From: a virus
Virus record (IMG/VR): IMGVR_UViG_3300033978_000477
Location: 1 to 64,000 of that record
Reading direction: 5' to 3' (one strand)
DNA length: 64,000 bases
This document shows, piece after piece, positions 6,266-56,440 of this stretch. Below the pieces are notes generated by a model. The model was not told where the DNA came from and did not search any database. It saw only the letters and a program-made list of their open reading frames with translations. Within the stretch, counting starts at the first letter, position 1. Each line of letters starts with the position of its first letter. The translations under genes were made by a program, and so were the position numbers.

Positions 6266-7782
6266 GTGGACCGTTCGATACGGGCGTCTCCGCCTCGTAC
6301 AAGGTTCCCGGGTTCTTCGGGAAGATCATCTTCGGCGCGGGCACTGTCAGTGCGGGCGCTGTTCGGCTTGTCTGTCTCCTGGTCGGCATGAAGACCAGCG
6401 CTGGAAGCCTCACGGTGGACAGTCAGATCGCCGACGGCACCAGCCAGGAAGAGGCAGACTCCTACGCGGGCGCCGGCTCGCAACTGGCGCGCATGGCGTA
6501 CTCCGCGCTTCAGGTGCCGACGGTCAAGCTCAAGATGGCAGCCGTCACCGAGCCCGGCGGCGGCACCGCTGCAACCGTCACCATCGTCCTCACCGGCACC
6601 ATCACTGCGGCAGGTGAGACCCACATCCGCATCGCAGGCAAGAGCTACAAGACGGCCTTCCTCGCGACCGACACCCTGGACACCATCGGCGCAGCGGTCG
6701 TCGCGAAGATCTCATCGGACACCCGCTGCCCGTTCTCCGCGGCCTACAACAGCAGCACCGACACCATCACCCTGACGTGCCGCAACAAGGGCACGCAGGG
6801 GCGAGACTGGATCGTCTACTGGGTGACCGATGACATCGCTGCATCCGGCCTCATCGGCACGATTGCCGGCAGCTCTACCGTCAACACTGGCGGTGTCCGA
6901 GCCGGCGCAGCATCGTCAGGCACCGGTTCGGAGGACGTCACCTCGCTCCTCACCAAGCTCCTGACGAACCGCTACGCTCGCGTCGCTGTCGGTCACAACG
7001 ACACCACGAACGCTGCGCTCTGGGAGGCCCACGTCAACGCCAAGGCGCTTGCCACCACGATGCTGTATGACCAACTGGTCTTCGGCTTCAACGGCACCTA
7101 CGCCAACGCCATCAGCCTCGCGGCAACGACCCTCAACGCGCACCGCGCGCAAGTCGTTTGGCATCGCAACAGCGAAAGCCACCCCTGCGAGATCGCGGCC
7201 TACGTGGCAGCGAAGCGCTCGGTGGTGGAGCAGGCGACTTGGGTGCCGGACTACGATGGTCTGGAACTCACCCCCATCGCGCCTCAGGCGTTCGATGCGG
7301 ACAAGCCCACGCCGCCCGAGCAAGACGCCGCCCTCAACAACGGCGTCACACCATGCACCACGGTCAACGGCGTTGCGGTCTGCGTCCGCGCCATCACCAC
7401 GTACTGCCTGAACGGCACTGCGCAGGACGAACGCTGCCTCGACATCGGCGATGCGGTCTGCCCGGACCAGGCGATGATCGATCTGCAACTCTTCTGGTCC
7501 ACGGAGTTCCGTCCGGCCAATCCATACGTCGGTCCCGATCCGGCGGAGGGAGACCCCGAGCCCCCCAGCGGCGTTGCCTTCCCCAAGCTCTGGAACGGCA
7601 AGGTCGTTCAGAAGCTGGAGGAGTGGGGCCGCGCCGGCTGGATGAAGTTCCCGCCGACCGGCATCTGGGCGCCGACGTCGACCTTCGTTGAAGCCTCCGA
7701 GGCCATTGCGACGGTCATCCCTCTTCCAGTTCGACGCCTGCAACACCGCACCGACCAGGTGATGCGCCAGACCGCGAGCTGA
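6262..7782 (+). CDS. Contractile tail sheath protein (Mu gpL-like)
   Basis: KVPGFF, GAGSQLARM, EQDAALNNGVTP, RAITTY motifs. Confidence 0.9.
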   Translation: MSGPFDTGVSASYKVPGFFGKIIFGAGTVSAGAVRLVCLLVGMKTSAGSLTVDSQIADGTSQEEADSYAGAGSQLARMAYSALQVPTVKLKMAAVTEPGGGTAATVTIVLTGTITAAGETHIRIAGKSYKTAFLATDTLDTIGAAVVAKISSDTRCPFSAAYNSSTDTITLTCRNKGTQGRDWIVYWVTDDIAASGLIGTIAGSSTVNTGGVRAGAASSGTGSEDVTSLLTKLLTNRYARVAVGHNDTTNAALWEAHVNAKALATTMLYDQLVFGFNGTYANAISLAATTLNAHRAQVVWHRNSESHPCEIAAYVAAKRSVVEQATWVPDYDGLELTPIAPQAFDADKPTPPEQDAALNNGVTPCTTVNGVAVCVRAITTYCLNGTAQDERCLDIGDAVCPDQAMIDLQLFWSTEFRPANPYVGPDPAEGDPEPPSGVAFPKLWNGKVVQKLEEWGRAGWMKFPPTGIWAPTSTFVEASEAIATVIPLPVRRLQHRTDQVMRQTAS

Positions 7783-11693: not shown

Positions 11694-12643
11694 GCCGAGT
11701 ATTCACCGTTCACCGGAAGGCTGGCTTCTTCGGCCGAGTCTTCCCGGTGACCGATTGCGTGATCACTGGCGGCATCCGCCACCACGTACACGAATACCCG
11801 CACACCCCAGGCGGCGACACCGAGCCGATGGGGCGCAAGCTCTACACGATTCGGATGCGGGCATTCTTCGGAAGCGTCCCAGGCTCCAAGCTCAACCGGG
11901 ACTACCCGGACCTCTACCCGACGACGTTGCAGATCCTGCGAGCGGCGTTCGAGGAGGAGAAGGTTGCCGACCTGCTCATCCCAACGGTGGGCACCATCAA
12001 GGCGCGCGCTGTTGGCTGGACGCAAACGATGTCGTCGGGGAACCTCTCCGGCGAGACGATGGAACTGGAGTTCCTCGAAGAGTACGAGAACCAGTACCTC
12101 GACAACTCCGGGTCGGTAGACATCAACATCGACGTCGATGCGGCGAACGACGCGCTCCAAACGGCAGCGGCGGCCAAGCTGGCTGACCTCGACACCGGCG
12201 AGTTCGGCAATCCAGAGCCGCGCATCGAGAAGGCAACCAGCCTGTTCCAGTCGCTCAACGATGCGGTAGGTGCAGTGCTCGCCATCCGCGACACGGTGGA
12301 CGTCGCGGCGCGGCTCATCGAGGCCAAGCTGCTGAAGGTCGCTGACTTGTGCCGCGAGGTCGACAGGACACTCGGGACACTGCAAGGCGCGGACTTCGTC
12401 CGGGTGATGCAGGCTAACCGGGACCTCTGGCAGAGCGTCAACGAGACCATCGAGAACGTCACCAAGAAGCCGAGCCCGCTCCAGTACTACGAGACGCCGA
12501 AGCTGATGGGCGTCAACGAGGTTGCCATTGCCCTGTCCAAGTACGGGGTGAAGCCGGTGGACCTGCTCTCGCTCAACGGATTCGAGGATGCGTTTGCCAT
12601 CCCACCCGGCTACCGCGTCAAGTACCTGAACCTCGCAGCCTGA
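11690..12643 (+). CDS. Mu gpN-like (DNA circularization N-terminal domain) tail initiator protein
   Basis: RHHVHEYP...DTEPMGRK motif; C-terminal LysM-like LLSLNG..DAFAIPPG. Confidence 0.75.
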   Translation: MSRVFTVHRKAGFFGRVFPVTDCVITGGIRHHVHEYPHTPGGDTEPMGRKLYTIRMRAFFGSVPGSKLNRDYPDLYPTTLQILRAAFEEEKVADLLIPTVGTIKARAVGWTQTMSSGNLSGETMELEFLEEYENQYLDNSGSVDINIDVDAANDALQTAAAAKLADLDTGEFGNPEPRIEKATSLFQSLNDAVGAVLAIRDTVDVAARLIEAKLLKVADLCREVDRTLGTLQGADFVRVMQANRDLWQSVNETIENVTKKPSPLQYYETPKLMGVNEVAIALSKYGVKPVDLLSLNGFEDAFAIPPGYRVKYLNLAA

Positions 12644-12646
12644 CCC

Positions 12647-13801
12647 ATGGCCAACATCGGCAAAGACGGCGAGCTGGACGACCGCGTCCGGCTGAAGCTT
12701 GGGGGCGTCGAGACGAAGAACTTCGAGTCCTACTCGGTCAGCACGGCAGTACTGACGCAACCGTCGGCATTCTCCGTCCGGCTCGGCTCGTCCGAAGTCG
12801 CGGCCAAGTTCTTCCAGAAGTACCCGCCACGGACCGCGTTCCAGTTGATGATCGGCGACCTCGCCCAGTTCACTGGCGAGACCGACGGGTTCCAGGGAAC
12901 TGGCAGCGCCACATCTACCAGCATCACCCTGAAGGGCAGGGACCTCCTTGCTCGCTTGCATGATGCAGACGTCACCGCAGACACCCCGTATGCAGAGGTG
13001 ACATACGAGGACATGGTCAAGGCGGCCATGAAGGAGGTCGGTCTTGGGGATCGCCTTCTCATCGTTGGCAATGCCGTCTCGCGCGAAGCGAAGGTTGGCC
13101 GCAAGATCAGCGGCACCGAGCCGCAGGTCAGTAGCTTGGTGACGCAGACCGTCGGTGCAGGCGGACTCGTCCGGCAAAGCGTCCGCGCGAAGATGGGCGA
13201 GACGTGGCTGAACTTCTGCCTTCGGCACCTCGAAAGCGTCGGCCTGTTCCTCTGGACAGACTTCGAGGGGAACCTCGTTCTCTCCAAGCCCAACCCGAAC
13301 CAGAAGCCTTCCTATCGGTTCATCCGCGAGGTGGGCAGCCGCACCAACCGCGTCAACATCACCGACTGGTCATTCAACAACGACACCACCCACCGCTTCA
13401 GCGAGATCGTCACGTGGGGCAGGGCGCCCGGTAGGGGCAAGGGACGCGGCAAGATCAAGGGCGACCTCGACGACGCCGAGATGATTGAGTGGGGCTACGA
13501 CCGCCCCAAGGTCTTCCACGACAGCGACATCACCAACGGGCAGAGCGCGATTGCGCTAGCCAAGCGGCGAATGGGTGAGGCCAACCGCGCCGGCTGGCAA
13601 CTGACCTACACCTTCCAAGGTCACACGGTCCCATCGATTGACGGGCGCAGCCGAGTGGTTGTTGCTCCCGACACGGTCGCCCAGGTGCAGGACGATGAAC
13701 TCGGCATCAACGAGCCGCTCTACATCGAGAGCGTCGAGTACCACTGCCCGCCGACGCAGACGGTAGTAACGATGATGCGGCTCAAAGACGTTGTCTTCTG
13801 A
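12647..13801 (+). CDS. Baseplate hub (Mu gpP/gp44-like)
   Basis: ESYSV, ITLKGRDLLARLHD, GETW..F motifs. Confidence 0.8.
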   Translation: MANIGKDGELDDRVRLKLGGVETKNFESYSVSTAVLTQPSAFSVRLGSSEVAAKFFQKYPPRTAFQLMIGDLAQFTGETDGFQGTGSATSTSITLKGRDLLARLHDADVTADTPYAEVTYEDMVKAAMKEVGLGDRLLIVGNAVSREAKVGRKISGTEPQVSSLVTQTVGAGGLVRQSVRAKMGETWLNFCLRHLESVGLFLWTDFEGNLVLSKPNPNQKPSYRFIREVGSRTNRVNITDWSFNNDTTHRFSEIVTWGRAPGRGKGRGKIKGDLDDAEMIEWGYDRPKVFHDSDITNGQSAIALAKRRMGEANRAGWQLTYTFQGHTVPSIDGRSRVVVAPDTVAQVQDDELGINEPLYIESVEYHCPPTQTVVTMMRLKDVVF

Positions 13802-41285: not shown

Positions 41286-41314
41286 AACATACGCGCGCGG
41301 CAATCCGCGCGCAA
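41286..41314 (-). promoter_or_regulatory. Sigma70 promoter containing an inverted repeat
   Basis: TTGCGC-17 nt-TATGTT; GCGCGCGG-ATTG-CCGCGCGC palindrome overlapping the -35 and spacer. Confidence 0.6.
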
Positions 41315-41322
41315 GTGGATAA

Positions 41323-41356
41323 CGCAAAAAAAAGACCAGTGACGGTCTTTTCTGCG
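41323..41356 (-). terminator. Intrinsic terminator ending the type IV operon
   Basis: AAAAGACC-GTCACT-GGTCTTTTTTTT on the minus strand. Confidence 0.65.
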
Positions 41357-41371
41357 GGAAACGCGATGCTT

Positions 41372-41731
41372 TTAGTTGAGCATGTCGACGGCGTCGACAA
41401 CCTCGACGCCAGCCGCACGCGCCCTCGCGACCATGTCCGCAGTCCCGCGTCCACCAGGGAACGCGACTACGAGGTCGGGCTTCTCCCGCTCCAGCATCAG
41501 CGCGTTGCGGATGGGTCCTGCTGCCCGACCGTGCGTCTTCCAGTCGGCATGGTAGGCGACGCATTGGTGTCCGTTCTCCCGCGCCCAGCGGGCCGCCAGC
41601 GCGTCAGCGCCAGTGGCTCCGCCGTGGACGATGCGGAGGTCACCGTGGAACGCGTGTAGCGTGTTCAGCGTGTCTCTGACGCGGTGCCAGTCTGAGTAGT
41701 CGCGTCCGCCGCAAACGAGGATGGTGGTCAC
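41372..41731 (-). CDS. YspA/DUF2493-type SLOG nucleotide-binding protein
   Basis: ILVCGGRDY, IVHGGATGAD, ADW..HG.AAGP.RN..ML, VAFPGG.GTADM. Confidence 0.9.
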   Translation of the reverse strand: MTTILVCGGRDYSDWHRVRDTLNTLHAFHGDLRIVHGGATGADALAARWARENGHQCVAYHADWKTHGRAAGPIRNALMLEREKPDLVVAFPGGRGTADMVARARAAGVEVVDAVDMLN

Positions 41732-42477
41732 CGGTTCACGTCCCGTTCCCGCGCTGCAAGCGCGTCAGTCAACTCGTCCGAATAATACGCGCGCTCCCAC
41801 GCGCGTCGCCCATGCCCGGTCCCTCGGTCCCCTCCCAGCGACCCAACGCGGATGTAGTTCCGGTCGTACATGCCGCCTTGGGTGCATGCGTACGCGGGAT
41901 GCAACGGCAGCCCATGGGCATGAATGAACGGGAACACGTGAAGCGCCACCTTCCAGTGCCCGATTGGGGCGCAGGTGTTCTCCGTGGTGAGTCCGTAGTG
42001 CGCCGTTCGAAGGCGCCTGACCGCAGACTCTTGGGCGCGCACACCCGAGATGTGGCGCTTCCCGAACATGCGCTCGGCTTGCGCGAAACCCTCGGATGAC
42101 GTGAGCCCCTTCTTCGCGGTACGAGCCTCGACCTCGTGATAGTTGGCGGTCGGATGCATCGCGAGAAATGCGTCCCGAACCAAGACGCAATCTGGGTTCT
42201 CACGATCATCGACGCGCACCCAGACGAGAGGAACATGGATCCCGTGGGTCAACGCGATGTGCGCCGTCACCACGGAGTCCTTGCCCCAACTCACCCCGAG
42301 GTAACCGCGCCTGCCATCAGGGCCGGCATCAAGGAACGTTCGCATCTCGTGAGCTGCCTTGCGAGCAAGCACATCAAGAGTCGGCCGCATCCTCTTTGCC
42401 TCAAGCGCATCGGTGCGCTCATAGATGGCCCACTGCTCCAAATCGCGTGGCGTATGGCGCGGACTGGCTATCAGCAC
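41728..42477 (-). CDS. CysH-like (PAPS reductase family) protein of type IV-B locus
   Basis: PP-loop SWGKDS; G.RA.ES..RR; C.PI..W; adjacent to csf3. Confidence 0.85.
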   Translation of the reverse strand: MLIASPRHTPRDLEQWAIYERTDALEAKRMRPTLDVLARKAAHEMRTFLDAGPDGRRGYLGVSWGKDSVVTAHIALTHGIHVPLVWVRVDDRENPDCVLVRDAFLAMHPTANYHEVEARTAKKGLTSSEGFAQAERMFGKRHISGVRAQESAVRRLRTAHYGLTTENTCAPIGHWKVALHVFPFIHAHGLPLHPAYACTQGGMYDRNYIRVGSLGGDRGTGHGRRAWERAYYSDELTDALAARERDVNR

Positions 42478-43106
42478 GCAGTGGCCTCCTCACGATGTTT
42501 CTGCCAGTACGGAGGCGCCAGAACGCGCCGTTCGATGCGATGCTCTCCCAGTCCCTCCCAGTCGAGCGGAAGCGGTCTGAGTGGCCGCCCAGCGCGAAGA
42601 ACGGGGAAGCCCGGCCACGCTTCGATCGGCTCAACCACCCACCGATCCACACGGCCGAGACCGACGCCGCGCTTCTTCCCGAGGTGAGTGACGAGCGAGA
42701 GGATGTCCGTCACCGCGTCGATGTCCCCGATGGCATAGAACGTCATCAGATCGCCATGCAGGTGCAGAGTCTCGGCGGGGATGCGGAAGCCCTTGGACAG
42801 GCCGCCCTTTGGGTTGACGCTCATCTTGGTCTTCCCGAGCATCTGCGCCTCCAGCATCGGGAAGCGCTTGTTGATGAACCGCTTCTCGTGCAGCTCGACA
42901 CTGAACTGCCCCGTCGACGCGAGGTAGATGCCGCGCTCTCGCGAGATGGGGATCTGAATGTCAACGAGAGGACCGAACCCCGGAGGGGGGAGCGCGTCGC
43001 GCACGGCAATGGCTGCCATGAGCAACGCGTCCAGTGCAATGCTCGCATGAGGAAGCATCACGGAACCGCGCAGGTGTGCGCGAGCGACGAAGGGACCCAT
43101 GGTCAC
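42471..43106 (-). CDS. csf3: Type IV Cas5-family subunit Csf3
   Basis: I.LDALL, IP......IY.AS, FYAIGD...V..IL..VTHLGKKR..G.G.V..W, RPLP, PPYW. Confidence 0.85.
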   Translation of the reverse strand: MTMGPFVARAHLRGSVMLPHASIALDALLMAAIAVRDALPPPGFGPLVDIQIPISRERGIYLASTGQFSVELHEKRFINKRFPMLEAQMLGKTKMSVNPKGGLSKGFRIPAETLHLHGDLMTFYAIGDIDAVTDILSLVTHLGKKRGVGLGRVDRWVVEPIEAWPGFPVLRAGRPLRPLPLDWEGLGEHRIERRVLAPPYWQKHREEATAC

Positions 43107-44110
43107 GCGTCCACCTCGGACAGAAACTTGGCGACCTTCTCTTTCCGCTCGCTCACATGCGAGAAGAAGAGGGAGCCGATCTTCGGCGCCAACGCTCCAA
43201 CGTCCAGGTTCTCCGGCGCCTCACGAGGGCGACGAACCGCGATCTGCTTTGCGATGATCGGACGGATGCGCCCGTGCCCGGTCGCGCGTTTCCCCCCGAC
43301 GCGAGCATCGCGAAGGAAGGCGCCAACCATCGTGTTGAACGTGTCCCGCTCAAGCTCCGTGTGGACCGTCGCAGTGACCGACCAGTAGAACAGTGCGCCG
43401 GAGACAACGGTCTCATGGTTGCGAGGAAGCATCGTGCTCTTGGACGAGTCCGCAATGACGACGTCGCCGACTTCCTTCCCGTGTTCGGACGCAAGCAGTC
43501 GCCGCTCGATGCTCAGCCCTCCGTCCGTCAGAAGCTTGCGCTTCCCAGGGTCCAGGCTCGGGTCCATGCGAACGCGCATCACCTCTTCGACGTGACCGCG
43601 TGCAGATGAGAGTTTGACCCCGTGCTCCTTCAGCCATTCGTTGACCCACTCCGGCATCCGGTGGGCAGTCTCGTCGCAGATCAAGTCCGCCGCATCCACT
43701 TGGACCTTCCCAGGGATCGCGCGGTTCTGGGCGCAGCCTCCGAGGAGTCCTAGGGGAGGGCAGAGATCGATCATGACAGAGTAGTCCGACAACTTCACGG
43801 ACCCTTCCTGCGAGCCAGATATCATCCCGCCAGCGAAGAGAAGTCGCAGAGCGGCCTCGCCAAGCGCGGGGTTTTCCAGCATCCCGGCCGCATCAAGAAG
43901 CGCGTAAGCGCCGGCCTCGCGCAGACCGTGGCGCATCGTGTCTCCGGTGATGATCGGTACATGTGCAAAGGAGCCATCGGGCAGACGGCGCTTCTCGCGC
44001 ATCACGAGAGACGTGTTGCCGATGCTCTCCGATGCATGGGCAATTGGCGTAAGGGCCTCAAGGATGAAATCGTAACGAACCACTTCGTGAACCTTCTTCG
44101 TCTCGCTCAT
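43103..44110 (-). CDS. csf2: Type IV Cas7-family backbone Csf2
   Basis: A.TPIAH, VPIITGDTMRHGLR, LLF.GG, P.LGLLGG, G-rich GGKRATGHG; ATG at 44110. Confidence 0.9.
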   Translation of the reverse strand: MSETKKVHEVVRYDFILEALTPIAHASESIGNTSLVMREKRRLPDGSFAHVPIITGDTMRHGLREAGAYALLDAAGMLENPALGEAALRLLFAGGMISGSQEGSVKLSDYSVMIDLCPPLGLLGGCAQNRAIPGKVQVDAADLICDETAHRMPEWVNEWLKEHGVKLSSARGHVEEVMRVRMDPSLDPGKRKLLTDGGLSIERRLLASEHGKEVGDVVIADSSKSTMLPRNHETVVSGALFYWSVTATVHTELERDTFNTMVGAFLRDARVGGKRATGHGRIRPIIAKQIAVRRPREAPENLDVGALAPKIGSLFFSHVSERKEKVAKFLSEVDA

Positions 44111-44493
44111 TGTGCCGCTTCCTCTCGTGCTGCCTGGGCAGCTTCCTTGCGTTGTTCGGCGATGCCACGGGCCATCGCAATCAGGTAGCCAAACTCCCTT
44201 TCGATCAAGTCGAGCCATGCGCGGGAGCAGTTGTTCTCTCGGACGAAGTCCGCGAGATCACGAGAAGAGCGAGAGCTGTCCACTCGCAGCGCCCCCAACT
44301 GAAGCGTTCGAACCATCTTGGTCGTCCACTCCTCTACCGATTCGCTCTGCCGAGATGCCGCCAGCATCCGGCTCTGCAACTGATCCCAGTGCTTCAGGAC
44401 GTTGCACCCAGGCGTCCCCAGGTACGCGCTCCGAAGCTCCAGCAGAAGCTCCACTGTCAGCGTCCGCAGACGCTCTTTCTTTTCCTCGTTCAC
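44107..44493 (-). CDS. cas11: Type IV-B small subunit (Cas11-like)
   Basis: 128 aa all-helical; W..L..R...A.......EW; GTG with AAGGGA RBS; located between csf1 and csf2. Confidence 0.7.
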   Translation of the reverse strand: MNEEKKERLRTLTVELLLELRSAYLGTPGCNVLKHWDQLQSRMLAASRQSESVEEWTTKMVRTLQLGALRVDSSRSSRDLADFVRENNCSRAWLDLIEREFGYLIAMARGIAEQRKEAAQAAREEAAQ

Positions 44494-45268
44494 GTTTCGG
44501 TCCCTTCTTCTTGGTCGGCCCATCAGCCTTCGATTTCGTCGTCTTCGCCGCGGCCTTCTTTGCCGCCTTCTCTTGTTTCTCCGCTTCCATCCTTTCGGCC
44601 ACTGCGGCCTCGTCACGTTGCGCCAGCCAGATGGCCAACTCAAACCACTGCCCACCACGCCTAAAGCCGTGCTTGGTCTCGAACGCGTGAAGCTTCGCCC
44701 CGCACAACTGCCACGCGCGCGAGCCGAGAGCCCCAGACAGAATCTCCTCCTTCGTTGCGCCCATCGTCAGCAGATCGGCGATGTCGTCCAGCATTGACCA
44801 GCCTTCAGCATCGCGAGGCAACTCGACGATGGCCTCCTCGAACAGGACCGCACCACCGGCCTGTCCAGGCGCGTTGATGGGGGTCCACGGGATCAGGTGC
44901 TTCTTGCCGCTGTCCGCGATGGCGGCGAACCATGGGGCCTCGTGGGTGCGGCGAATGAAGTCTCGGATGGCTGGCTTCTGCCCCTTGTTCACGCGGACGT
45001 GAGAGGAGCCTTCCACCAGGTGCGTCCACATGCGCTCAGTGTCGGGAGGTTTGCCGGCCATGACGTGGACACATGACTCGCAGACGTAGCCGCTCTCTGC
45101 GCAGCGGACGCGGTTCTGGCCTGTAAAGTTTGCGCCGGCCCACTTGTGACGCTCCACCCCTCGCGTCGCGTCACCGCCGCAAACCCAACAATGGAACGCT
45201 TCCATGTCTCGGCACATGGCGTTTGGCTTGAGCCCGAGAATCTTGTGGATGATCTGGCTAGGGCTCAC
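44258..45268 (-). CDS. csf1: Type IV large subunit Csf1 (Cas8-like)
   Basis: CWVCG...NFT......S.YVCESC; PWF..IA.SG.KH..P. Confidence 0.85.
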   Translation of the reverse strand: MSPSQIIHKILGLKPNAMCRDMEAFHCWVCGGDATRGVERHKWAGANFTGQNRVRCAESGYVCESCVHVMAGKPPDTERMWTHLVEGSSHVRVNKGQKPAIRDFIRRTHEAPWFAAIADSGKKHLIPWTPINAPGQAGGAVLFEEAIVELPRDAEGWSMLDDIADLLTMGATKEEILSGALGSRAWQLCGAKLHAFETKHGFRRGGQWFELAIWLAQRDEAAVAERMEAEKQEKAAKKAAAKTTKSKADGPTKKKGPKRERGKERASADADSGASAGASERVPGDAWVQRPEALGSVAEPDAGGISAERIGRGVDDQDGSNASVGGAASGQLSLFS

Positions 45269-46203
45269 GGAACCTCCGAGACACGAATGCGCCCAAAGCC
45301 AAACGCGGTGCGCCCTCCAAAGCCGGTACGTGCTGCGACTTCAAGAAGCCACCGGGCTGGAGCGTTTGCCTCGACCACGCAATGCCCCTCCCAGCCTGAA
45401 ACGGTGCCGTACTTGCCGCCGACCTCTACCCTGGCGACCCTCGTATCGACCTCAGACGCTTCGACGCGGATCAGGTCGTCCGTCTTCAGGTGTTCGAGAG
45501 AGAAACGCTGAAGCCAAGCTCCGGCGAGTGTGTTGAGCAGCGCGACTGATGTTGGCTTCTCGTGGCTCTTGGTGCGCCCATCCGTTGTCATGACGACAGG
45601 GGTGATGGTGTCGATACGGACGCGCTTCCTGCCCCTAGCAATGCCGCGCGGCGCCTTGATTCGGAAGGCCTGTCCAAACTTGAACTTCGATGGATGCCCG
45701 TACAGTGGACAGTCGACAGTCTTGCCGGCCAATGAGGCGCCAGCATCGTGCCACCAGTGGACCGCCCAACCGCTCTGATACGGGAACAGCGTCCACAACG
45801 GAAAGCGAGGCATGTGCCCCATGTCGAGGATGTTGGTCAGTGCGCCATGAAGGCCCCGGGTGTTTCGCAACTCAATGGGCCACTTTGGCGACGGGTAGAC
45901 ACTGAAGGCCATTGATGCGCCCGGCAGGTACGTGTCGAACGGAGGGGCGCCAGCAAGCCATGGTTTGCGGGTGGAGCAGGCTCGGTTTGCCTCTGCCCAC
46001 TTGCGGTTCCGCTCCCTGTCCTTCTCGACGTAGGAAGGCGATGCTCTCCGTGCACGGTCCCGCTCCCGCTCCCGTTCCTTCCTGCACTCTTCAGAGCAGA
46101 ACTGCGTCATCCAAGGGTTGGCCGTTTGGTACACCGACCGGCAACGTTTGCACTCTGCTTCGTACCGCTCACGCTCTGCTGCGTTCATCAACTCACACCT
46201 CAC
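45265..46203 (-). CDS. cas6: Cas6-family RNA endonuclease with N-terminal C4 zinc finger and basic helix
   Basis: C-terminal G-loop GFGGRTAFGFG, TITPV strand, GW.G; N-terminal CKRC...FCSEEC-RKERERERDRARR. Confidence 0.8.
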   Translation of the reverse strand: MRCELMNAAERERYEAECKRCRSVYQTANPWMTQFCSEECRKERERERDRARRASPSYVEKDRERNRKWAEANRACSTRKPWLAGAPPFDTYLPGASMAFSVYPSPKWPIELRNTRGLHGALTNILDMGHMPRFPLWTLFPYQSGWAVHWWHDAGASLAGKTVDCPLYGHPSKFKFGQAFRIKAPRGIARGRKRVRIDTITPVVMTTDGRTKSHEKPTSVALLNTLAGAWLQRFSLEHLKTDDLIRVEASEVDTRVARVEVGGKYGTVSGWEGHCVVEANAPARWLLEVAARTGFGGRTAFGFGRIRVSEVP

Positions 46204-46559
46204 CCATTCCGATGCGACCGCGTCTCGTTGTAGGCGCTCTTGATCAGCACCGCGCGACCGATGTCGACGCCGTTCTCCTCTGCGGTGTCGAGCGCACGGA
46301 TGATGATGTCAGCCAGCTCCTCTTCCATGCAGGTGAGGGGCTCAGCCGTCTTCTTGTCGCACGGCTTGTCCAGCATCCCGCGCCGGTAGGCCTCCCAGAG
46401 TTCGGAGACCTCGCCGTGCAGGTTTGCGACCGAGACAGCCATGGGCACCGGTTCGTCGTGGAAGCCTTTCGACCTGGCGATGCCGTAGACGTGGTTGGCA
46501 AGTGAGCGCAGCGAGTCCGCGATGCGCCGGCCTTCGCCGCTGTCTATGTATAGAGTCAT
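46200..46559 (-). CDS. MazG-like NTP pyrophosphohydrolase
   Basis: A..KGF, LHGEVSE..EA.R, EEELAD..IR.LD, K..YN.TR. Confidence 0.85.
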   Translation of the reverse strand: MTLYIDSGEGRRIADSLRSLANHVYGIARSKGFHDEPVPMAVSVANLHGEVSELWEAYRRGMLDKPCDKKTAEPLTCMEEELADIIIRALDTAEENGVDIGRAVLIKSAYNETRSHRNG

Positions 46560-46939
46560 CACATCCCCTCCGTCTTCTTCACCGGCCCCGTCTCCACCAT
46601 CGCCATCAGGTCCGCAGGTAACGTTCGGTACTCCACCGCCGTCCCGCGACTGTTCGCCGTATCGACCCCGAGCGCCATCCCGCTGCTGATGCCGAAGTCC
46701 GTGTAGACCGCCACCAGATCGCACTTGTTGCCCCAGGCAAAGCCCGCGCTGATGCCGAGCGTTCGGTGTTCCTTGTTCGTGTCGTCCAGCAGTTGTGTGT
46801 AGAGCAAGTGCGAAGCCATCGGGGCTTCATTGCGTCGCTCAATGCTGTCGAGGCAGCATAGCCGCGCGTAGTTGATGTTCTGCTCGAACGTCCTGCCGTT
46901 GGCTGGACTCAGCGGACTCTCAATGACCACTAGCTTCAT
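46559..46939 (-). CDS. Nucleoside deoxyribosyltransferase-like fold protein
   Basis: VVIESP, N..YAR.C..DS...EAP.ASHLLY.Q, VYTD.GIS.GM. Confidence 0.65.
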   Translation of the reverse strand: MKLVVIESPLSPANGRTFEQNINYARLCCLDSIERRNEAPMASHLLYTQLLDDTNKEHRTLGISAGFAWGNKCDLVAVYTDFGISSGMALGVDTANSRGTAVEYRTLPADLMAMVETGPVKKTEGM

Positions 46940-47091
46940 GACTTCTTGAACTCCTTCTCCTGATGCCGCTTCCTTGCCCCAGCAATGCGGCACTTCTTCG
47001 ACTTTGCATGACGGTGCAGCGGCCGATGTGTCCCGACCGCATGCACCACCAACGCGCCACAATTGGCGCAGCGAGCGACGTAGCCGCTCAC
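46936..47091 (-). CDS. Small basic Cys/His protein
   Basis: MSGYVARCANCG...H....C; fills the gap and is coupled to the next gene. Confidence 0.45.
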   Translation of the reverse strand: MSGYVARCANCGALVVHAVGTHRPLHRHAKSKKCRIAGARKRHQEKEFKKS

Positions 47092-47095
47092 CAGT

Positions 47096-48223
47096 TCAGA
47101 TCCTCATCGGCATGACGACGCACAAGAAGTCATCGCCAGACTCCGCCTCGGGCGCCACCATCAGCGGGTCGAGTTCCCCGTTCAGTTTGAGGACCACCTC
47201 CTCGCAGGACAGAACGTTGCAGGCGTCGACGATGTATTTGGCGTTGAATCCAACGCTGATGTTCGGTCCGGTGTAGCCGATGATCAGTTCGTCCGCCCCA
47301 TCACCATGCTCCGGGCTCTCCGCCTCGATGCGGAGCGTCCCCTTGGAGAAGCGGAACTTGACGCCTCCAGTGCGCTCGTTCGATGCAACGGAGATCGCCT
47401 TGCAAGCCTCAATGAGCGCGAGCCGGTCGACTTCCGCGATGCTGTCGTTCCCCTTCGGGATGACCTGCGAGTATGGCGGGAACTTCGCGTCCACCAACTT
47501 GATGCTGTAGACCATCCCGGCGAAGTCGAAGAACGCGTTGTTGTCTGCGATGGTGACGCGGATGACCGATCCAGCATCCGCTGCGCTGGCCTCGTCACAC
47601 ATGCGACGGATGTCAGTTGCTCCCTTCAGCGGAAGAAGGAACTCAAAAGCGGTTCCTTCGGAGACGGGGAGGTTCGACAACGTCAGACGATGCCCGTCGG
47701 TGGAGACCGTTCGCAGGTTGGTGCCATCAGCCTCGAACTTGATCGCGTTCAGGTGGGCCCGCGACTCGTCCACGCCAACGCTGGAGATGACTCGACCGAT
47801 GGCGCGCGACAACGTCACGGCATGGAACTCGCGCGACGCCGTTGTGTTTGCGCCGGCAGCCTTTGCGACGGGCGGGAAGTCTTCGGCATGGTGGCATGGG
47901 AGCCGAAACTTTCGCGCCCCCTTCTCCGCCTTCATCTGGACGGCCTTGTCATCACCGATGATGGTGAGGTTGCCCGAAGGCATCGCCTTGACGCGAGCTT
48001 CCAGATCCTTCGCGCCGATGGCGATGGCCCCGGACTTCGAGACCTTGGCGTCCACGGACCCGGTGACGGATCGGTAGAGGTCGGTCGCGGTGAAGTGGAC
48101 CTGTCCATCTTCGCAACGTAGGAGGATGTTCGCGAGCATCGGCATGGTGCTCTTGTGGTCTGCGACAGGCGTTGCCCGTCGAAGGATCTTGTCGAGGTCG
48201 TTGCGTTGAATCGTCACTTCCAT
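47096..48223 (-). CDS. dnaN: DNA polymerase III beta sliding clamp homolog
   Basis: MP.LANILL, ATDL, STDGHRL, KFPPY..VIP, GFNAKY, VVMPMRI. Confidence 0.95.
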   Translation of the reverse strand: MEVTIQRNDLDKILRRATPVADHKSTMPMLANILLRCEDGQVHFTATDLYRSVTGSVDAKVSKSGAIAIGAKDLEARVKAMPSGNLTIIGDDKAVQMKAEKGARKFRLPCHHAEDFPPVAKAAGANTTASREFHAVTLSRAIGRVISSVGVDESRAHLNAIKFEADGTNLRTVSTDGHRLTLSNLPVSEGTAFEFLLPLKGATDIRRMCDEASAADAGSVIRVTIADNNAFFDFAGMVYSIKLVDAKFPPYSQVIPKGNDSIAEVDRLALIEACKAISVASNERTGGVKFRFSKGTLRIEAESPEHGDGADELIIGYTGPNISVGFNAKYIVDACNVLSCEEVVLKLNGELDPLMVAPEAESGDDFLCVVMPMRI

Positions 48224-48438
48224 TGTCTGTTCTCTCCGTTCGTTCGGGACCCGCCCGACTCGGTTGATGCAATTCGTTTCTCGATGGCCCGCTGAACAGC
48301 CACCACCTTCCACTGAGGGCAGCCGTTGGTGTCCGCGTACTGCCTTGCCCTGGCAACCAGATCGTCGAAGCTCGCGCTCCCGAGCCAGGCCAGGAACTTG
48401 ATGTCCGCATCGATCCGGTGATGCTCCCCGCGCCTCAT
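48214..48438 (-). CDS. Hypothetical protein
   Basis: GGAGGTG RBS; overlaps both neighbours. Confidence 0.45.
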   Translation of the reverse strand: MRRGEHHRIDADIKFLAWLGSASFDDLVARARQYADTNGCPQWKVVAVQRAIEKRIASTESGGSRTNGENRQWK

Positions 48439-48644
48439 TGCCCGGACACCTCCCGCCAACCGGCATCGGTCAGCCGGTAGTAGGTCTTTGGCCCATCGGC
48501 GAACTGCACCGTCGCAGTCGCGCACAACCCCCTCAGGACGAGCGCGTCAACCGCATCGGCCTGGGATGGGGTCTCGGGCATGAAGAGCATGTGGCGGGCC
48601 ATCTGGCGCAAGCAAGCGGCCTCTGCGTCGATAGCCATCAGCAC
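48435..48644 (-). CDS. Small wHTH-like protein
   Basis: LVLRGL...YRLTDAG. Confidence 0.5.
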   Translation of the reverse strand: MLMAIDAEAACLRQMARHMLFMPETPSQADAVDALVLRGLCATATVQFADGPKTYYRLTDAGWREVSGQ

Positions 48645-50014
48645 GCCTCCTCTGCCGCGACATTGGCGCGATGCTCCGTCACCAATGCGTCGACCGCAGC
48701 GGCCAGGTCCAAGCCCTTGCGGGTCGCAAACGGGTCCCGCTCAGCAACAGCCGACAGGTAGGACCCGGATAGGGCCCAGAGCTTGTCCATCGGCGCGAGA
48801 TCATTCATGACTGCCCCCGTTTGCAAAACCGTCATACGTGGGTTCGAATCCCATCCACGCCTCTCAATCAATTCAATGGCTTGGCCCGCATCCTCGCTCA
48901 CTGGCTCGGGCCCTATTCGGACCCTATGTTGCGGGATGGCATTGCTCGGAAGGTCGACACTGGGCCCCATCGAGAGACCGATGGATCGCGCGTAGCGCTC
49001 CGTGACCTTGACCGAAGAGTGACCCAGGAGGTCCTTCACGGCCTCGTAGCTCCAAGGCTTGCCGTCCCAAGCTCCGGTCAACAGGAGCGTTGCGCATGTG
49101 TGGCGGAGATCATGCCAGCGGACGCGGCGAGTGATCCCGGCCTTGGCCTTCCAGGCTGCCCAGTCAGCGGCGGCGACGATGCGTCCCTTCGGGCGATGCA
49201 GTCCGGTGACGCTCGGCAGGACGATGCCTTTGCGCTCGGCCTCTGGCACCGCCAGGACGGCCTGTAGCGCGATGCCGAACAGGCGAACCTTCCGCACTCG
49301 CCCGCTCTTCGTCGAGACGCCTGGGGTGCCATAGCGGAGCACTACGTGGGGGACCTTGGCGTTGACGTGAACGTCGGACCAAAGAAGCGAACGCTCCTCG
49401 CCTTGGCGCATCCCGGTTCCGATGGCCAAGCAGACGGCCAGGTCGTTCCCGCTCGCAGCGATCAGCGCAAGCGTCTCCGCCATATCGAGGGCGGTGCTCT
49501 TCTCGTCCGTGCTGCCATGGTCTTTGACCTTGATGCCAAGCGCGACGTTGGTTGCGAGCTTGCCGGCCTCGACTCCGTAGGAGAGAACAGCGCGCAAGGT
49601 GTTGAGCGCGTTGCGCCGGGTCATCGTCGACAGCCCGCGCGCGGAGATGTCCGCCAGCCATTCCCGGATCTGTCCAGTCGTCAGATCGCGAGCCGGCATC
49701 CGCGATGCCTCCCACGGAAGGACGTAGGCGTTCCAGCAAGACTTGAAGCTCTTGATCGCCTTGTACCCATCGCGCTCGCGAAGGTCGATGCAGGACTCGC
49801 CAAGGCGCTTCAGGCTGATACCGCCTCGCGTGCACTCGCTCTCTGCTAGCACCGCTAGGATGCCATCGAGAGCCATCTCCGCCTCTTCGTAGGTCGCAAA
49901 CGGGGAGCCTTCGATCTCTTCCCTTCGTCCAATGGTGAACGGGAAGCGCGCGCGGTACCGTCCGTCTGCGATCTTGGTGATGGTGCCAGAGCCCTTAGGC
50001 CTTCGCTTCGTCAT
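48638..50014 (-). CDS. int: Tyrosine integrase containing attP
   Basis: RRPKGSGTI arm motif; TGMR.GE, HDLRHT, LLGHS...T.RY. Confidence 0.95.
   Translation of the reverse strand: MTKRRPKGSGTITKIADGRYRARFPFTIGRREEIEGSPFATYEEAEMALDGILAVLAESECTRGGISLKRLGESCIDLRERDGYKAIKSFKSCWNAYVLPWEASRMPARDLTTGQIREWLADISARGLSTMTRRNALNTLRAVLSYGVEAGKLATNVALGIKVKDHGSTDEKSTALDMAETLALIAASGNDLAVCLAIGTGMRQGEERSLLWSDVHVNAKVPHVVLRYGTPGVSTKSGRVRKVRLFGIALQAVLAVPEAERKGIVLPSVTGLHRPKGRIVAAADWAAWKAKAGITRRVRWHDLRHTCATLLLTGAWDGKPWSYEAVKDLLGHSSVKVTERYARSIGLSMGPSVDLPSNAIPQHRVRIGPEPVSEDAGQAIELIERRGWDSNPRMTVLQTGAVMNDLAPMDKLWALSGSYLSAVAERDPFATRKGLDLAAAVDALVTEHRANVAAEEAC
48819..48863 (+). mobile_element. attP core: 3' half of tRNA-Cys(GCA)
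   Basis: GTTTGCAAAACCG (anticodon loop), GTGGGTTCGAATCCCAT (T-arm), CCACGCCTC (acceptor 3' strand); no 5' half present. Confidence 0.85.
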
Positions 50015-50238
50015 ACGCCGCCTCGCTTCTTTATCATCCGCCTTGCCCGTGACGTGTACAGGTCATCGGTGACTGGAGACAAGGGCTGCGGGAACGGCCT
50101 CGCACGAAGTGCCCGAGGGCGACTCTTTGGAGCAAGCGGAGCCGGGTCATTGGCGGGCTCGGTTGCCTCCAGTTCTTCGGCGATGTCGGTGAGTACATCA
50201 GCCAGTGCGCGGTAGAGGTTGGCTAGCTTGGCGCTCAT
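50011..50238 (-). CDS. Small protein coupled to int (excisionase candidate)
   Basis: Position and ATGA coupling; basic C-terminus. Confidence 0.45.
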   Translation of the reverse strand: MSAKLANLYRALADVLTDIAEELEATEPANDPAPLAPKSRPRALRARPFPQPLSPVTDDLYTSRARRMIKKRGGV

Positions 50239-50468
50239 TGCGAAACCTTGGTGAGGGTCTTCGGGATGCGCCGCGCCGTCAGCTTTACCCCGATGCCGCG
50301 CAGTGCGTCCAGGAACCGCGATGCGACTTCGACGGAAACGCGCTGGCTACCATGGCAGAGGTTGCAGTGACGGGCATTGTGCTTGGCAGCCTTGCGCCTC
50401 GCGACTTCGGTGCCGTGCATCGGGTTGCAGGATGGGCATCGGGTAGGGACCTGATCATCGTCGCTCAT
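50235..50468 (-). CDS. Zn-finger hypothetical protein
   Basis: CPSC...CNLCHG; GAGGAG RBS. Confidence 0.55.
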   Translation of the reverse strand: MSDDDQVPTRCPSCNPMHGTEVARRKAAKHNARHCNLCHGSQRVSVEVASRFLDALRGIGVKLTARRIPKTLTKVSQ

Positions 50469-50491
50469 CTCGTGTACTCCTCATCAAAAGC

Positions 50492-50631
50492 GCCCGTCTC
50501 TCCGGGCTGTCACGCTGCAATGCTGCGTTGGCACTGGTCTCGCGACCATGTGGACGCTGGCGGAATCGAACCACCAACACGCGCGCATGCCACATGGGCG
50601 CCCCGTTGATGCCGGTCTCTCCCGGCTGTCA
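50492..50631 (-). ncRNA. Structured RNA: two covarying hairpin repeats flanking a 53-nt tRNA-like element
   Basis: TGACAGCCGG-GAGAGA-CCGGC (50611-50631) and TGACAGCCCG-GAGAGA-CGGGC (50492-50512); T-arm GGTGGTTCGATTCCGCC within 50551-50603. Confidence 0.65.
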
Positions 50632-50641
50632 GTTCAACGAT

Positions 50642-50863
50642 TCACCCTTCCCAGTGAGCGGACTGTGCTGCGCGCTCCACCGCCACACTCTCTGCTTGGC
50701 GCAGCGCTATCGACAACACGTCGGCGACCCTGTCGGCATCCCGCTGCGTCATGTCTCGCGATGCAAGTCGCCACTCCTTTCCGGTCCAGACTTCCACTAG
50801 GCGTCGATGCTTGAAGCTGTTGATGCCGTTCACTACGCGCACCATTGGGTGACGATCGCTCAT
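50642..50863 (-). CDS. Hypothetical protein
   Basis: ATGA coupling. Confidence 0.5.
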   Translation of the reverse strand: MSDRHPMVRVVNGINSFKHRRLVEVWTGKEWRLASRDMTQRDADRVADVLSIALRQAESVAVERAAQSAHWEG

Positions 50864-51279
50864 AGTGGCCCACCCGAGAGCTTTCGAAGTTGGGCCATCA
50901 CACGGTCCTCCCCATCCTTCAGCCCGCGCCGATACGCCGCCGCATTCTCACTGGCGAACATGGTGGAGATTGTCGCGGCCCTCATTGACCCAACAGCAGC
51001 GATCAGTTCATTCTCACAAGTGCGCTCGAAGATGCCTACCGCGCGGCCCATGTCTTCGACAATCTGACCCATCACCGCCCTTGCCAAACACACGAAGTGC
51101 ACGTCATTGGCGGTCATGCTCTCGGCAATCAGCGGCGCTCCGTAGAACTCCTCGGAGCCGTTCGTATTGGCCAATGGGGCGACGATGTGATTGATGCTGC
51201 TGCCATCGCCGGATGCGATCCATGGGCCCTTGGTCGCTCGCTGCACAACCTGATCAAGCTCGTAGTGCCGAAACCTCAT
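50860..51279 (-). CDS. Ead/Ea22-like protein
   Basis: ATKGPW...IAE....ND..F...AR. Confidence 0.55.
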   Translation of the reverse strand: MRFRHYELDQVVQRATKGPWIASGDGSSINHIVAPLANTNGSEEFYGAPLIAESMTANDVHFVCLARAVMGQIVEDMGRAVGIFERTCENELIAAVGSMRAATISTMFASENAAAYRRGLKDGEDRVMAQLRKLSGGPL

Positions 51280-55181: not shown

Positions 55182-56053
55182 TGCGCGGCCTCCTCGCTAG
55201 CCGCCGCCGGTTCAGACGCAGGAGCAGGCTTTGCCGCCGCTGCGAACTTCGAATTGTACGCGGCCTTCGCGTCCGTCGCCCATGGCTCCCCGGCTTCAGA
55301 CACGAACTTCTGGACCATCGCCCGGACTTGCTTCCCCGCATCGGCCTTTGCGATCTTGATCTTCAGATCCTCAAGCTCGCTCGCGTAGTCGCGAATCGCG
55401 CCAGCGACCGGAGAGGGCTGCTTCGGTTCCTCGACAACCTCAGCATCCGGGATCTTGTCCGACGGCGGAGCTTGAGGGATTGGACCTTGCTGCGGCCCTT
55501 GGACCTTCAAGGGCTTTGAGTTCTCCTCCTGCATGTCTTCGTACGACGGCATCCCGTTGATCAGATCGGGAAACTCCGACTGCGCCGCGTAGCTTCGCGC
55601 TCGCGCTTGCAGCATCCGCTTCGGATACATCTCCCAGTTGCCGCCGGCCTTGATGAGGTTCGCCCTGCGAGCTTCGGCGATCGTGAACTCGTACTCACGA
55701 CCCGGACGACCGATGCGCTTTGCGTAGTACACACACTTCTCTTCGGTGATCTCGCGCATCTCGAACGCGTCAACAACGCGTTGCCCCTCGGGAGCAGTCA
55801 TGTTGCCGAGGATGCGGCTCTCCATGAACTGCGCCGCCAGCGTCGCCCGGCCCTTGATGAAGTAGATGTTTTGCATCGACTCAAAGGCGCTCATTCCCAT
55901 CGAGCGGCCAGCTTGGATCTTGGCGAAGGCGACCTGCGCAGTGATCTCGTAGGCAACAGCCAAGTTCGTTGCGAACTTGATGGCCTCCTGAATGTCTGCC
56001 GGCTCCAAGAGGGCAAGACTGCTTGATTGAACTAGTGACGTAGTCGGTGACAT
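55178..56053 (-). CDS. RecT-like single-strand annealing protein
   Basis: G...GM...ES.Q.IY.I.GR, FTI.EA.RA.L....NW..YP.RML.ARA, FPD.I.G. Confidence 0.8.
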   Translation of the reverse strand: MSPTTSLVQSSSLALLEPADIQEAIKFATNLAVAYEITAQVAFAKIQAGRSMGMSAFESMQNIYFIKGRATLAAQFMESRILGNMTAPEGQRVVDAFEMREITEEKCVYYAKRIGRPGREYEFTIAEARRANLIKAGGNWEMYPKRMLQARARSYAAQSEFPDLINGMPSYEDMQEENSKPLKVQGPQQGPIPQAPPSDKIPDAEVVEEPKQPSPVAGAIRDYASELEDLKIKIAKADAGKQVRAMVQKFVSEAGEPWATDAKAAYNSKFAAAAKPAPASEPAAASEEAAQ

Positions 56054-56082
56054 TGTTGTTCTCCTTGTTCCCACTCAACACT

Positions 56083-56136
56083 TGGACCAGCGCCTCGGAG
56101 TTGAACCAAGGACAGGGCCGTAAACCTTCGCCAGTC
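56083..56136 (-). ncRNA. 54-nt tRNA-like mini-RNA
   Basis: GACTGGCG pairs with CGCTGGTC followed by CA; T-arm CCTTGG-TTCAACT-CCGAGG. Confidence 0.55.
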
Positions 56137-56239
56137 GGCAGACTCAACGGGCTCTCCGTCTGCCAGGGAATCAGTCAGGTGCGCTCGCATTGCGCAAGCG
56201 CCCATGTTCCTCGCGGTCTCACCCGCGCCCGTCGAAGTC

Positions 56240-56440
56240 CTACGCGACCTTGTCGCTCTTCCCGTCGCAGAGCCAGCACACCAGCCCGTCCGGCGTCTCG
56301 TACGTCGGCACCGGCTGCCCGCACTTGGCGCAACCCTTGTGCGCCGACGCGTACTGCCGCAGCGTCATCTCGCGCTGCGCCCTGTCGAGTCCCATGACAT
56401 CGCGAACGTTCTGCCCATTGCTCGCTGCCCAAATCATCAC
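56240..56440 (-). CDS. Small Zn-finger protein
   Basis: CAKCG...CWLC. Confidence 0.55.
   Translation of the reverse strand: MMIWAASNGQNVRDVMGLDRAQREMTLRQYASAHKGCAKCGQPVPTYETPDGLVCWLCDGKSDKVA

Follow-up and report, generated by a model that had tools for sequence, protein, structure and literature searches.

Organization of the locus

The window analyzed here is a stretch of 64,000 nucleotides (nt) from virus record IMGVR_UViG_3300033978_000477, and the element under study is a CRISPR-Cas effector operon of subtype IV-B on its minus strand. Seven open reading frames (ORFs) occupy 41372-46203 (-) in the order zinc-finger Cas6 (ZnF-Cas6), csf1, cas11, csf2, csf3, a cysH-like gene and a YspA-type SLOG gene (Table 1). 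All seven frames are intact and translationally coupled, adjoining genes overlap by 4-7 nt, and an intrinsic terminator closes the operon. A preliminary description of the window had listed these overlapping minus-strand genes in this order with the terminator, and the ORFs, the hidden Markov model (HMM) matches and the stem-loop confirm it. The same description had called the locus a phage IV-B-like effector operon with its own zinc-finger Cas6. PADLOC, Pfam, the predicted fold and Foldseek bear this out; the HMM and structure searches that it had proposed were run and returned matches to Csf1, Csf2, Csf3, Cas11 and Cas6, the best fold matches of the last being Cas6 proteins.

The virus record is 85,451 bp long, and the window covers its first 64 kb. 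The ends of the record (1-131 and 85321-85451) overlap at 130 of 131 nt, with a single mismatch at base 5, so the genome is closed (circular or terminally redundant) though listed as linear. CheckV gave a completeness of 100. The genome encodes a contractile tail (sheath, tape measure, baseplate) and a tyrosine integrase, which, together with the completeness, indicate a complete temperate myovirus-type phage.

No CRISPR array was detected by repeat finders or k-mer scans, either in the window or across the complete genome of 85,451 bp. Searches of the complete genome for Cas1, Cas2 and the Cas12f TNB domain were negative while control genomes gave matches, and the same was true of the DinG-type Helicase_C_2 domain, RecD itself not being among the searches. 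No Cas12-type gene was found in this phage. The absence of cas1, cas2, dinG and an array, first stated for the 64 kb, thus extends beyond the window to the complete genome. With Csf2, Csf1, Csf3, Cas11 and an adjacent cysH-like gene, and with no array, adaptation genes or DinG, the module belongs to subtype IV-B. Papers are cited here by PMC number. In print, IV-B has neither arrays nor Cas6, apart from what are called "rare exceptions: only 12 instances" of the latter (PMC7038947). Because a full Cas6 is present here, against that printed description, we file the module as a variant of IV-B and not as a standard member. It is a Cas6-bearing, clamp-motif-bearing variant of this subtype in a complete phage, for which we infer the mechanism given below.

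Table 1. Positions of the operon, its neighbors and the other features discussed. Positions refer to the window except for the last row.
Feature	Position	Strand	Evidence
Intrinsic terminator closing the operon	41326-41349	-	stem AAGACC/GGTCTT, loop GTCACT, then T run; after the SLOG stop
YspA-type SLOG gene	41372-41731	-	PF10686 85.5 bits (cut-off 28.2); 4-nt overlap with cysH
cysH-like PP-loop enzyme (CasCysH type)	41728-42477	-	PF01507 (PAPS_reduct) 24.6 bits (cut-off 22.5); phrog_2302 5.6e-18
csf3 (type IV Cas5)	42471-43106	-	PADLOC PDLC01727 4.8e-35
csf2 (type IV Cas7)	43103-44110	-	PADLOC PDLC01724 2.2e-42, covering 5-311 of the 329-position profile
cas11 (small subunit)	44107-44523	-	PADLOC typeIV_Cas11 1.1e-5 and 1.7e-5
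csf1 (Cas8-like large subunit), low-complexity C-terminal tail	44258-45268	-	PADLOC PDLC01721 6.7e-24, residues 5-223
QLSLF pentapeptide by the Csf1 C-terminus	44264-44278	-	translation; Csf1 ends GQLSLFS
ZnF-Cas6	45265-46203	-	Pfam PF01881 23.6 bits (cut-off 23); PADLOC Cas6 3.6e-8
MazG-like pyrophosphatase	46200-46559	-	phrog_3301 1.9e-22; Pfam MazG weak, E 0.014
DUF7768/nucleoside 2-deoxyribosyltransferase-like gene	46559-47062	-	PF24963 94.3 bits; phrog_355 5.6e-22
dnaN, phage beta sliding clamp	47096-48223	-	PF00712 68.4, PF02767 83.4 and PF02768 84.6 bits, all above cut-off
Candidate hairpin pair flanking a 98-nt tRNA-like piece	50492-50631	-	two 21-nt units (50492-50512, 50611-50631)
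Candidate third similar hairpin, CGGGTGAGACCG	56214-56225	-	pattern search, 2 matches against 0.11 expected
Type I-G locus (L094) of candidate host genome	G375:C1:3892000-3911900		127 repeats

A zinc-finger Cas6 with a complete Cas6 body

The N-terminus of the Cas6 (residues about 11-75) consists of a CxxC...CxxxC zinc ribbon and two long helices, and is followed by a complete double-RAMP Cas6 body at residues about 90-312 with the glycine-rich loop GFGGRTAFGFG. Sequence models of Cas6 cover only residues about 185-310. The whole Cas6 body behind the zinc ribbon was predicted by AlphaFold from a 38-sequence alignment, with a mean local confidence (pLDDT) of 90.2 and a template modeling score (pTM) of 0.85. 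A Foldseek search of the PDB with this model gave 45 matches at E<=0.001; the best 15 were all Cas6, aligned over 249-288 columns. The best match was 4c9d_A (E 3.2e-8), 6fjw matched with TM scores of 0.51/0.64, 3pkm was also matched, and the type IV Cas6 6njy_A was matched at E 1.1e-6.

The 38 family sequences show no variation at H119 and H130, in the PWLAGAPP/LPG segment or in the glycine-rich loop. H119, within an LHG motif, sits at the start of helix 112-126 of the predicted structure. When PDB sequences were searched with the profile, GFGGRTAFGFG aligned with the loops of 6fjw, 3i4h and 3pkm. These data suggest that ZnF-Cas6 is probably an active endoribonuclease, H119 and H130 being its putative catalytic residues. 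A Cas6 kept with invariant histidines argues in turn for a specific RNA substrate, as the preliminary description had reasoned from the mere retention of a Cas6.

Relatives of this Cas6 numbered 104 in a protein set clustered at 90%, nearly all of them metagenomic. In a search of 1.84 billion representatives, the profile matched 229 clusters at E<=1e-30. The family spans contigs binned to at least six phyla. It is a dedicated family that travels with this IV-B clade and no oddity of one phage.

Survey of related loci

We collected 84 related loci. With Cas6 as the anchor gene there were 5 viral and 38 metagenomic loci, and with Csf2 as the anchor 28 viral and 13 genomic ones. The flanks reached 8-10 kb to either side of the anchor, so that arrays farther out on a contig would have escaped detection. 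The 84 collapsed to 69 distinct loci, whose six-frame ORFs were scored with the Cas6 HMM and with the proteins of the window; Csf, CysH and SLOG genes were detected by single-sequence phmmer at E<=1e-3, which misses divergent copies.

ZnF-Cas6 was present in 24 of the 38 Csf2-anchored loci, and in 21 of 30 when loci of at least 10 kb were considered. Conversely, Csf or CysH genes stood beside Cas6 in 33 of 36 Cas6-anchored loci, the other 3 being contigs of <=1.8 kb, and Csf genes were found in 21/22 Cas6-anchored loci of at least 5 kb. The string csf1-cas11-csf2-csf3-cysH adjoined Cas6 in all 5 Cas6-anchored viral loci. Dozens of phage contigs share the gene set, their proteins being 40-80% identical. 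The position of Cas6 varies: it precedes csf1 in 16 loci and follows csf3 in 22. Cas6 and Csf2 distances were weakly correlated (Spearman 0.33; 32/2000 permutations as high). In a quick Csf2 tree the three Cas6 states were interspersed, and the window paired with L047 (support 98) and then with the Cas6-less L034. An origin of Cas6 from the unassigned ORF that precedes csf1 in L034 was considered and rejected, as no profile similarity between the two was found.

A homologue of the SLOG gene was found by phmmer in none of the 69 loci, and the only SLOG gene among 36 flanking ORFs was that of the window itself (1/36). Since 24 of 38 loci have Cas6 and 0 of 69 have SLOG, Cas6 is part of this module clade and SLOG is not. 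The SLOG gene is a lineage-specific add-on, co-transcribed but not a core part of the system. The preliminary description had proposed surveying how often IV-B loci carry cas6 plus SLOG. Cas6, which it had treated as exceptional, is the majority state in the clade, and SLOG, which it had counted as a component, fell away. No recurrent seventh gene appeared, the 36 flanking ORFs matching 23 Pfam families with at most 2 members each.

Arrays were scarce among the relatives, with one array in 55 Cas6-bearing loci and none in the fetched flanks of the other 54. True arrays occurred in three related loci, L034 (14 repeats), L053 (8) and L012 (6); each abuts a Cas12f/Cas12u1-like gene (L034:67-2410, L053:15954-18420 and L012:10562-12982), and of the three only L053 has Cas6.

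The Csf1 tail and the sliding clamp

Csf1 ends in a low-complexity tail whose pentapeptide, QLSLF, fits QL[SD]LF, the bacterial beta-clamp-binding consensus, and is a motif of the clamp-binding type. We scored the pattern Q[LIVM][SDGATE][LIVMF][FWL] in the last 25 residues of each protein. It was present in 23 of 47 Csf1 tails, whereas shuffled tails gave 0.054 on average and never more than 2 in any of 500 rounds. The tails of the other subunits did not contain it (0/49 Csf2, 0/51 Csf3, 0/28 CysH and 0/36 Cas11).

The tail is encoded where csf1 runs into cas11. The two genes share about 265 nt (44258-44523) in different frames, and relatives such as L001, L003 and L047 have the same layout. 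Read in the csf1 frame, the overlap encodes a low-complexity linker with the clamp-type peptide at its end, and we ascribe the retention of the overlap to the Csf1 tail being encoded there. A phage dnaN lies three genes upstream of the operon and is the first gene of the same dense leftward string; the preliminary description had mentioned neither the peptide nor a link to this gene. Given the position of dnaN, the most economical reading is that the Csf1 tail tethers the particle to a sliding clamp. A literature search, with subscription papers and supplements outside it, found no paper that ties Csf1 or type IV systems to the sliding clamp.

Proposed mechanism

Taken together, these results lead us to propose, with a probability of about 0.5, that the phage IV-B module uses its Cas6 to supply a defined non-array RNA to a clamp-tethered Csf particle with CysH-like nucleic-acid chemistry. 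Cas6 would bind and cut a hairpin in a non-array RNA and would remain attached to the hairpin at the 3' end, in the manner of the type IV-A Cas6/Csf5, so that the Csf2-Cas11 filament would receive a defined RNA instead of a random one. Csf1 would tether the particle to the phage or host sliding clamp and so place it on replicating DNA. The CysH-like enzyme, of the ATP pyrophosphatase type, would then act on the bound nucleic acid by adenylation-type chemistry and not by cleavage. The role of the module is likely conflict, either with the host, from a lineage with a type I-G spacer against the phage, or with rival mobile elements.

Several observations weigh against this proposal. The NCBIfam models for Csf1, Csf2, Csf3 and Cas6 match, yet well under their curated cut-offs (Csf1 against TIGR03114 at 6.4e-11, also under its cut-off; Csf2 against TIGR03115 at 33.4 bits, cut-off 130), and for that reason the operon proteins are taken as divergent members of their families. 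The assignment of H119 and H130 draws on conservation and on one weak alignment, of the 'LHG...H' of this Cas6 with the 'FHG...LHQ' of Streptococcus thermophilus Cas6 6fjw, which has a domain score of 2.2 bits. Rfam, flank comparison, hairpin searches and host-repeat searches identified no RNA substrate; when 77 flanks were compared all against all, only close relatives matched each other and none matched the window, so that no conserved non-coding element was found beside the operon. Cas6 has been lost repeatedly, the Csf2 tree requiring at least 5 changes for the Cas6-less state, and the close relative L034 lacks both Cas6 and CysH; because of these losses, the effector can work without Cas6. 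The clamp-type pattern fits only about half of the Csf1 tails, with several more carrying looser variants that were not counted, and a dnaN homologue was near the module in just 4 of the 69 related loci.

A bolder form of the proposal, to which we give rather little credence, is that of a clamp-riding, array-independent RNA-guided machine. Cas6 would cut defined non-CRISPR RNAs, either hairpin-bounded tRNA-like transcripts of the phage or a conserved host RNA, and would pass them to a Csf filament that Csf1 attaches to the sliding clamp at replication forks. The CysH-like enzyme would there mark complementary nucleic acid by adenylation-type chemistry and not cut it. If this were true, phages would have in IV-B a guided system for modifying nucleic acids, directed against hosts or rival elements.

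Likely host and the possible capture of host CRISPR RNAs

The core of the phage attachment site, attP, is the 3' half of a tRNA-Cys(GCA) gene at 48819-48864 (+), antisense within the tail of the integrase ORF (48638-50014, -). The search for the bacterial site was confined to one phylum, that of the Myxococcales metagenome-assembled genome (MAG) that holds L034. A 27-nt core of attP was matched in 4 of 401 sampled genomes of this phylum (Myxococcota, by the label of the L034 MAG), and at 3 fetched loci the longer alignment with annotated tRNA-Cys genes agrees at 44-45 of 45-46 nt. Three of the 4 genomes with a matching tRNA-Cys have Cas1. One of them, G375, has the exact attP 27-mer and a type I-G system with 127 hairpin-forming repeats. 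A spacer of this system (L094:5299) matches the phage sheath gene (6919-6953) at 32 of 35 nt (E 3e-8) and gives the only alignment of at least 25 nt among the 192 spacers of G375 and G145. The tail sheath protein has at most about 30% identity to those of cultured phages, and the lack of a close relative among them is why we regard the spacer match as specific. No Csf2, as a sign of a prophage copy, was found in G375, G145, G195 or G220. The attP match and the spacer point to Myxococcota as the likely host lineage.

Under a first alternative, the Cas6 would recognize the repeats of the host's own arrays, and host CRISPR RNAs (crRNAs) would be loaded into the Csf particle or sequestered; host immunity would thereby be weakened, as by an anti-CRISPR sponge, or the host guides would be re-used. 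The phage has no array of its own, the candidate hosts have the Cas1 genes and the I-G spacer just described, three related loci adjoin Cas12f-like genes with arrays, and the sponge idea is in print (PMC7038947, PMC8175902). However, one ZnF-Cas6 family spans at least six phyla, whose repeats would differ widely. No profile similarity was detected between this Cas6 and the Cas5-6g of the candidate host, and no host-repeat-like unit was found in the phage. In published work, IV-B correlates negatively with other CRISPR systems (PMC7038947), and the Mycobacterium IV-B complex took up no processed I-E crRNAs (PMC7937560). We consider capture of host crRNAs unlikely, although it survives better than the explanations that follow.

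Candidate RNA substrates in the phage genome

The RNA could instead be encoded by the phage. Between the two 21-nt hairpins around the tRNA-like piece, the one difference is a compensatory C-G/G-C swap (pattern search, 2 matches against 0.01 expected), and a third, similar hairpin lies farther along the window. All three have a GNGAGA loop, are on the strand of the operon and belong to the early leftward region. Two tRNA-like mini-elements (50492-50631 and 56050-56260, both -) have an acceptor-like stem and a T-arm without a D or anticodon arm. ARAGORN called nothing at either of them, and Rfam gave nothing at gathering thresholds, with only chance-level matches around 50350-50750.

Under this second alternative, the hairpins at 50492-50512, 50611-50631 and 56214-56225 would be Cas6 sites and the tRNA-like RNA that they enclose or precede would be carried as a guide or scaffold. 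The compensatory swap, the third hairpin and the shared strand and region favor it, as does a tRNA-Ile-like element in a related locus (L061:931-1057; ARAGORN, 69 nt), which lies some 8 kb upstream of Cas6 between perfect direct repeats of 21 nt, spaced 106 nt apart, and resembles 50492-50631 in layout. However, a matching hairpin pattern was absent from five related loci (L001-L005), the flanks hold no conserved motif, and tRNA-like pieces in other loci are heterogeneous. The second hairpin doubles as a plain terminator, the element at 50492-50631 as a whole has an unexceptional fold (z -1.78; 10 of 200 shuffles fold as well), and the absence of an Rfam match also speaks against it. The hairpins could equally be antiterminator or RNase sites. 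A phage-encoded guide or scaffold is thus, in our estimation, quite improbable.

In five Myxococcota genomes the hairpin pattern gave only single matches with 3 mismatches, at the frequency of a reversed control. Mimicry of host repeats was rejected, as no phage stretch lies within 12 mismatches of the G375 or G145 repeat and the core hairpin of the repeat is absent. Over 50200-50900, the metagenome contigs of four runs were short, of low depth and identical to the window. One of 139 nt leaves out 50485-50549; these data are too thin to use.

Two further explanations were considered. The Cas6-like protein could have a role outside the Csf complex, for instance in phage RNA processing or in binding nucleic acids, or could be a non-catalytic structural subunit; either way the Csf particle would assemble on random RNA. 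Its variable position in the operon (upstream of csf2 in 16 loci, downstream in 22), its several losses, and the zinc ribbon and basic helices that standard Cas6 lacks would fit such a protein. Yet it stands practically always by Csf or CysH genes, the only exceptions being the three short contigs mentioned above, and both histidines and the glycine-rich loop are invariant; we see only a slight chance for this explanation. That the module is a decaying, non-functional CRISPR-Cas remnant, as the lack of an array, adaptation module and nuclease might suggest, is very improbable and already disfavored by the seven intact, translationally coupled frames, the maintenance of the gene set at the protein identities given above, and the conserved motifs in Cas6, CysH and the Csf1 tail.

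Other genes of the operon and its surroundings

The cas11 ORF is open to 44658 and likely starts at the ATG at 44523; homologues occupy the same overlapping position in related loci, with matches down to 1e-50. The csf2 ORF extends to 44218, with a likely start at the ATG at 44110 that overlaps the cas11 stop (ATGA), and Csf2 is 82% identical to that of L047 and 71% identical to that of L034. In the CysH-like protein, the motif S63-W-G-K-D-S68 is retained in at least 90% of 30 homologues, which agrees with the description of CasCysH (PMC8175902). The sole conserved cysteine among these homologues is C97, and none is conserved at the C-terminus.

Upstream of cas6 the gene string is unbroken and comprises the MazG-like gene, the DUF7768/deoxyribosyltransferase-like gene and dnaN. 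The longest ORF of the MazG-like gene reaches 46724, its likely start is the ATG at 46559, and its 3' end overlaps the start of cas6 by 4 nt.

Among the relatives, TnpB/Cas12f-like ORFs lie directly upstream of cas6 in L001 (8460-9650) and L017 (1288-2298). L034 has a radical SAM gene (12322-13797) after csf3, where cysH would be, and a C5 DNA methylase and a pentapeptide-repeat gene between dnaN and csf1. Two of the 36 flanking ORFs have ResIII/DEAD/Helicase_C domains and one has Helicase_C_2; these helicase domains suggest that some relatives may be helicase-bearing (IV-D/IV-A-like).

When the DNA of the operon was compared to 50,697 phage records, only the SLOG part matched (6 records, 3% of the query). 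The stretch 41300-50700 is present in lake-water metagenome runs of 2020-2024, with 17 of the 24 runs listed containing at least half of the sampled words and 9 flagged as a possible source sample. No RNA dataset was among the 24.

Comparison with known systems

The function of IV-B was called unknown in 2021 (PMC8175902), 2024 (PMC11656645) and 2026 (PMC13676074), and the Cas6-less IV-B complex of Mycobacterium binds heterogeneous RNA (PMC7937560). Our literature search found no functional study of IV-B and no description of a zinc-finger Cas6 family; the 12 Cas6-bearing loci of PMC7038947 are known to us by count only. The only solved complex carried random RNA, perhaps for lack of a factor to pick out the proper one. 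In a clade of IV-B modules that is widespread in phages, the retention of a dedicated Cas6 with conserved residues of catalytic type offers a direct experimental route to the native RNA. The conserved clamp-type peptide of Csf1 and the phage clamp gene in the same string suggest replicating DNA as the place of action, and the candidate host lineage, in which a type I-G system and an anti-phage spacer occur, would be a natural setting for defense and counter-defense.

Among the closest described counterparts is the Csf complex of the Mycobacterium sp. JS623 megaplasmid (Zhou et al. 2021, PMC7937560). Like it, the phage module has csf1, cas11, csf2, csf3 and an adjacent PP-loop cysH-like gene. 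Both are on mobile elements and both lack an array, cas1/cas2, a nuclease and a helicase. Unlike IV-B of the JS623 type, the phage module has a dedicated Cas6 with an N-terminal zinc ribbon, a Csf1 tail of the clamp-binding type and an appended SLOG gene, and its carrier is a tailed temperate phage instead of a plasmid.

The Cas6/Csf5 of type IV-A (6njy; complex 7xfz) shares its fold with the phage Cas6 (6njy_A as given above; 7xfz_H, E 1.1e-3), and the two presumably share a role in processing RNA and remaining as a subunit of the Csf complex. However, IV-A has an array and a DinG helicase and no Cas11, whereas the phage module has neither array nor helicase, and the best fold matches of the phage Cas6 are the generic Cas6 proteins of type I/III hosts (4c9d, 6fjw, 3pkm) and not Csf5.

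An Actinomyces plasmid carries IV-B next to Cas12b3 with a small array (Makarova et al. 2025, PMC12669027, Extended Data Fig. 7). The relatives L012, L034 and L053 echo this pairing of IV-B and V-B3, but their partner is Cas12f/U1-like and their arrays have 6-14 repeats. The phage of the window differs from these loci in having neither a Cas12-type gene nor an array. Fuxivirus, a virus of Bathyarchaeia, is likewise a virus that encodes IV-B, of an atypical form, with a CysH-like gene (PMC10848311). It has a two-repeat mini-array, and no Cas6 is mentioned for it, whereas the phage module, without an array, carries a Cas6 of its own.

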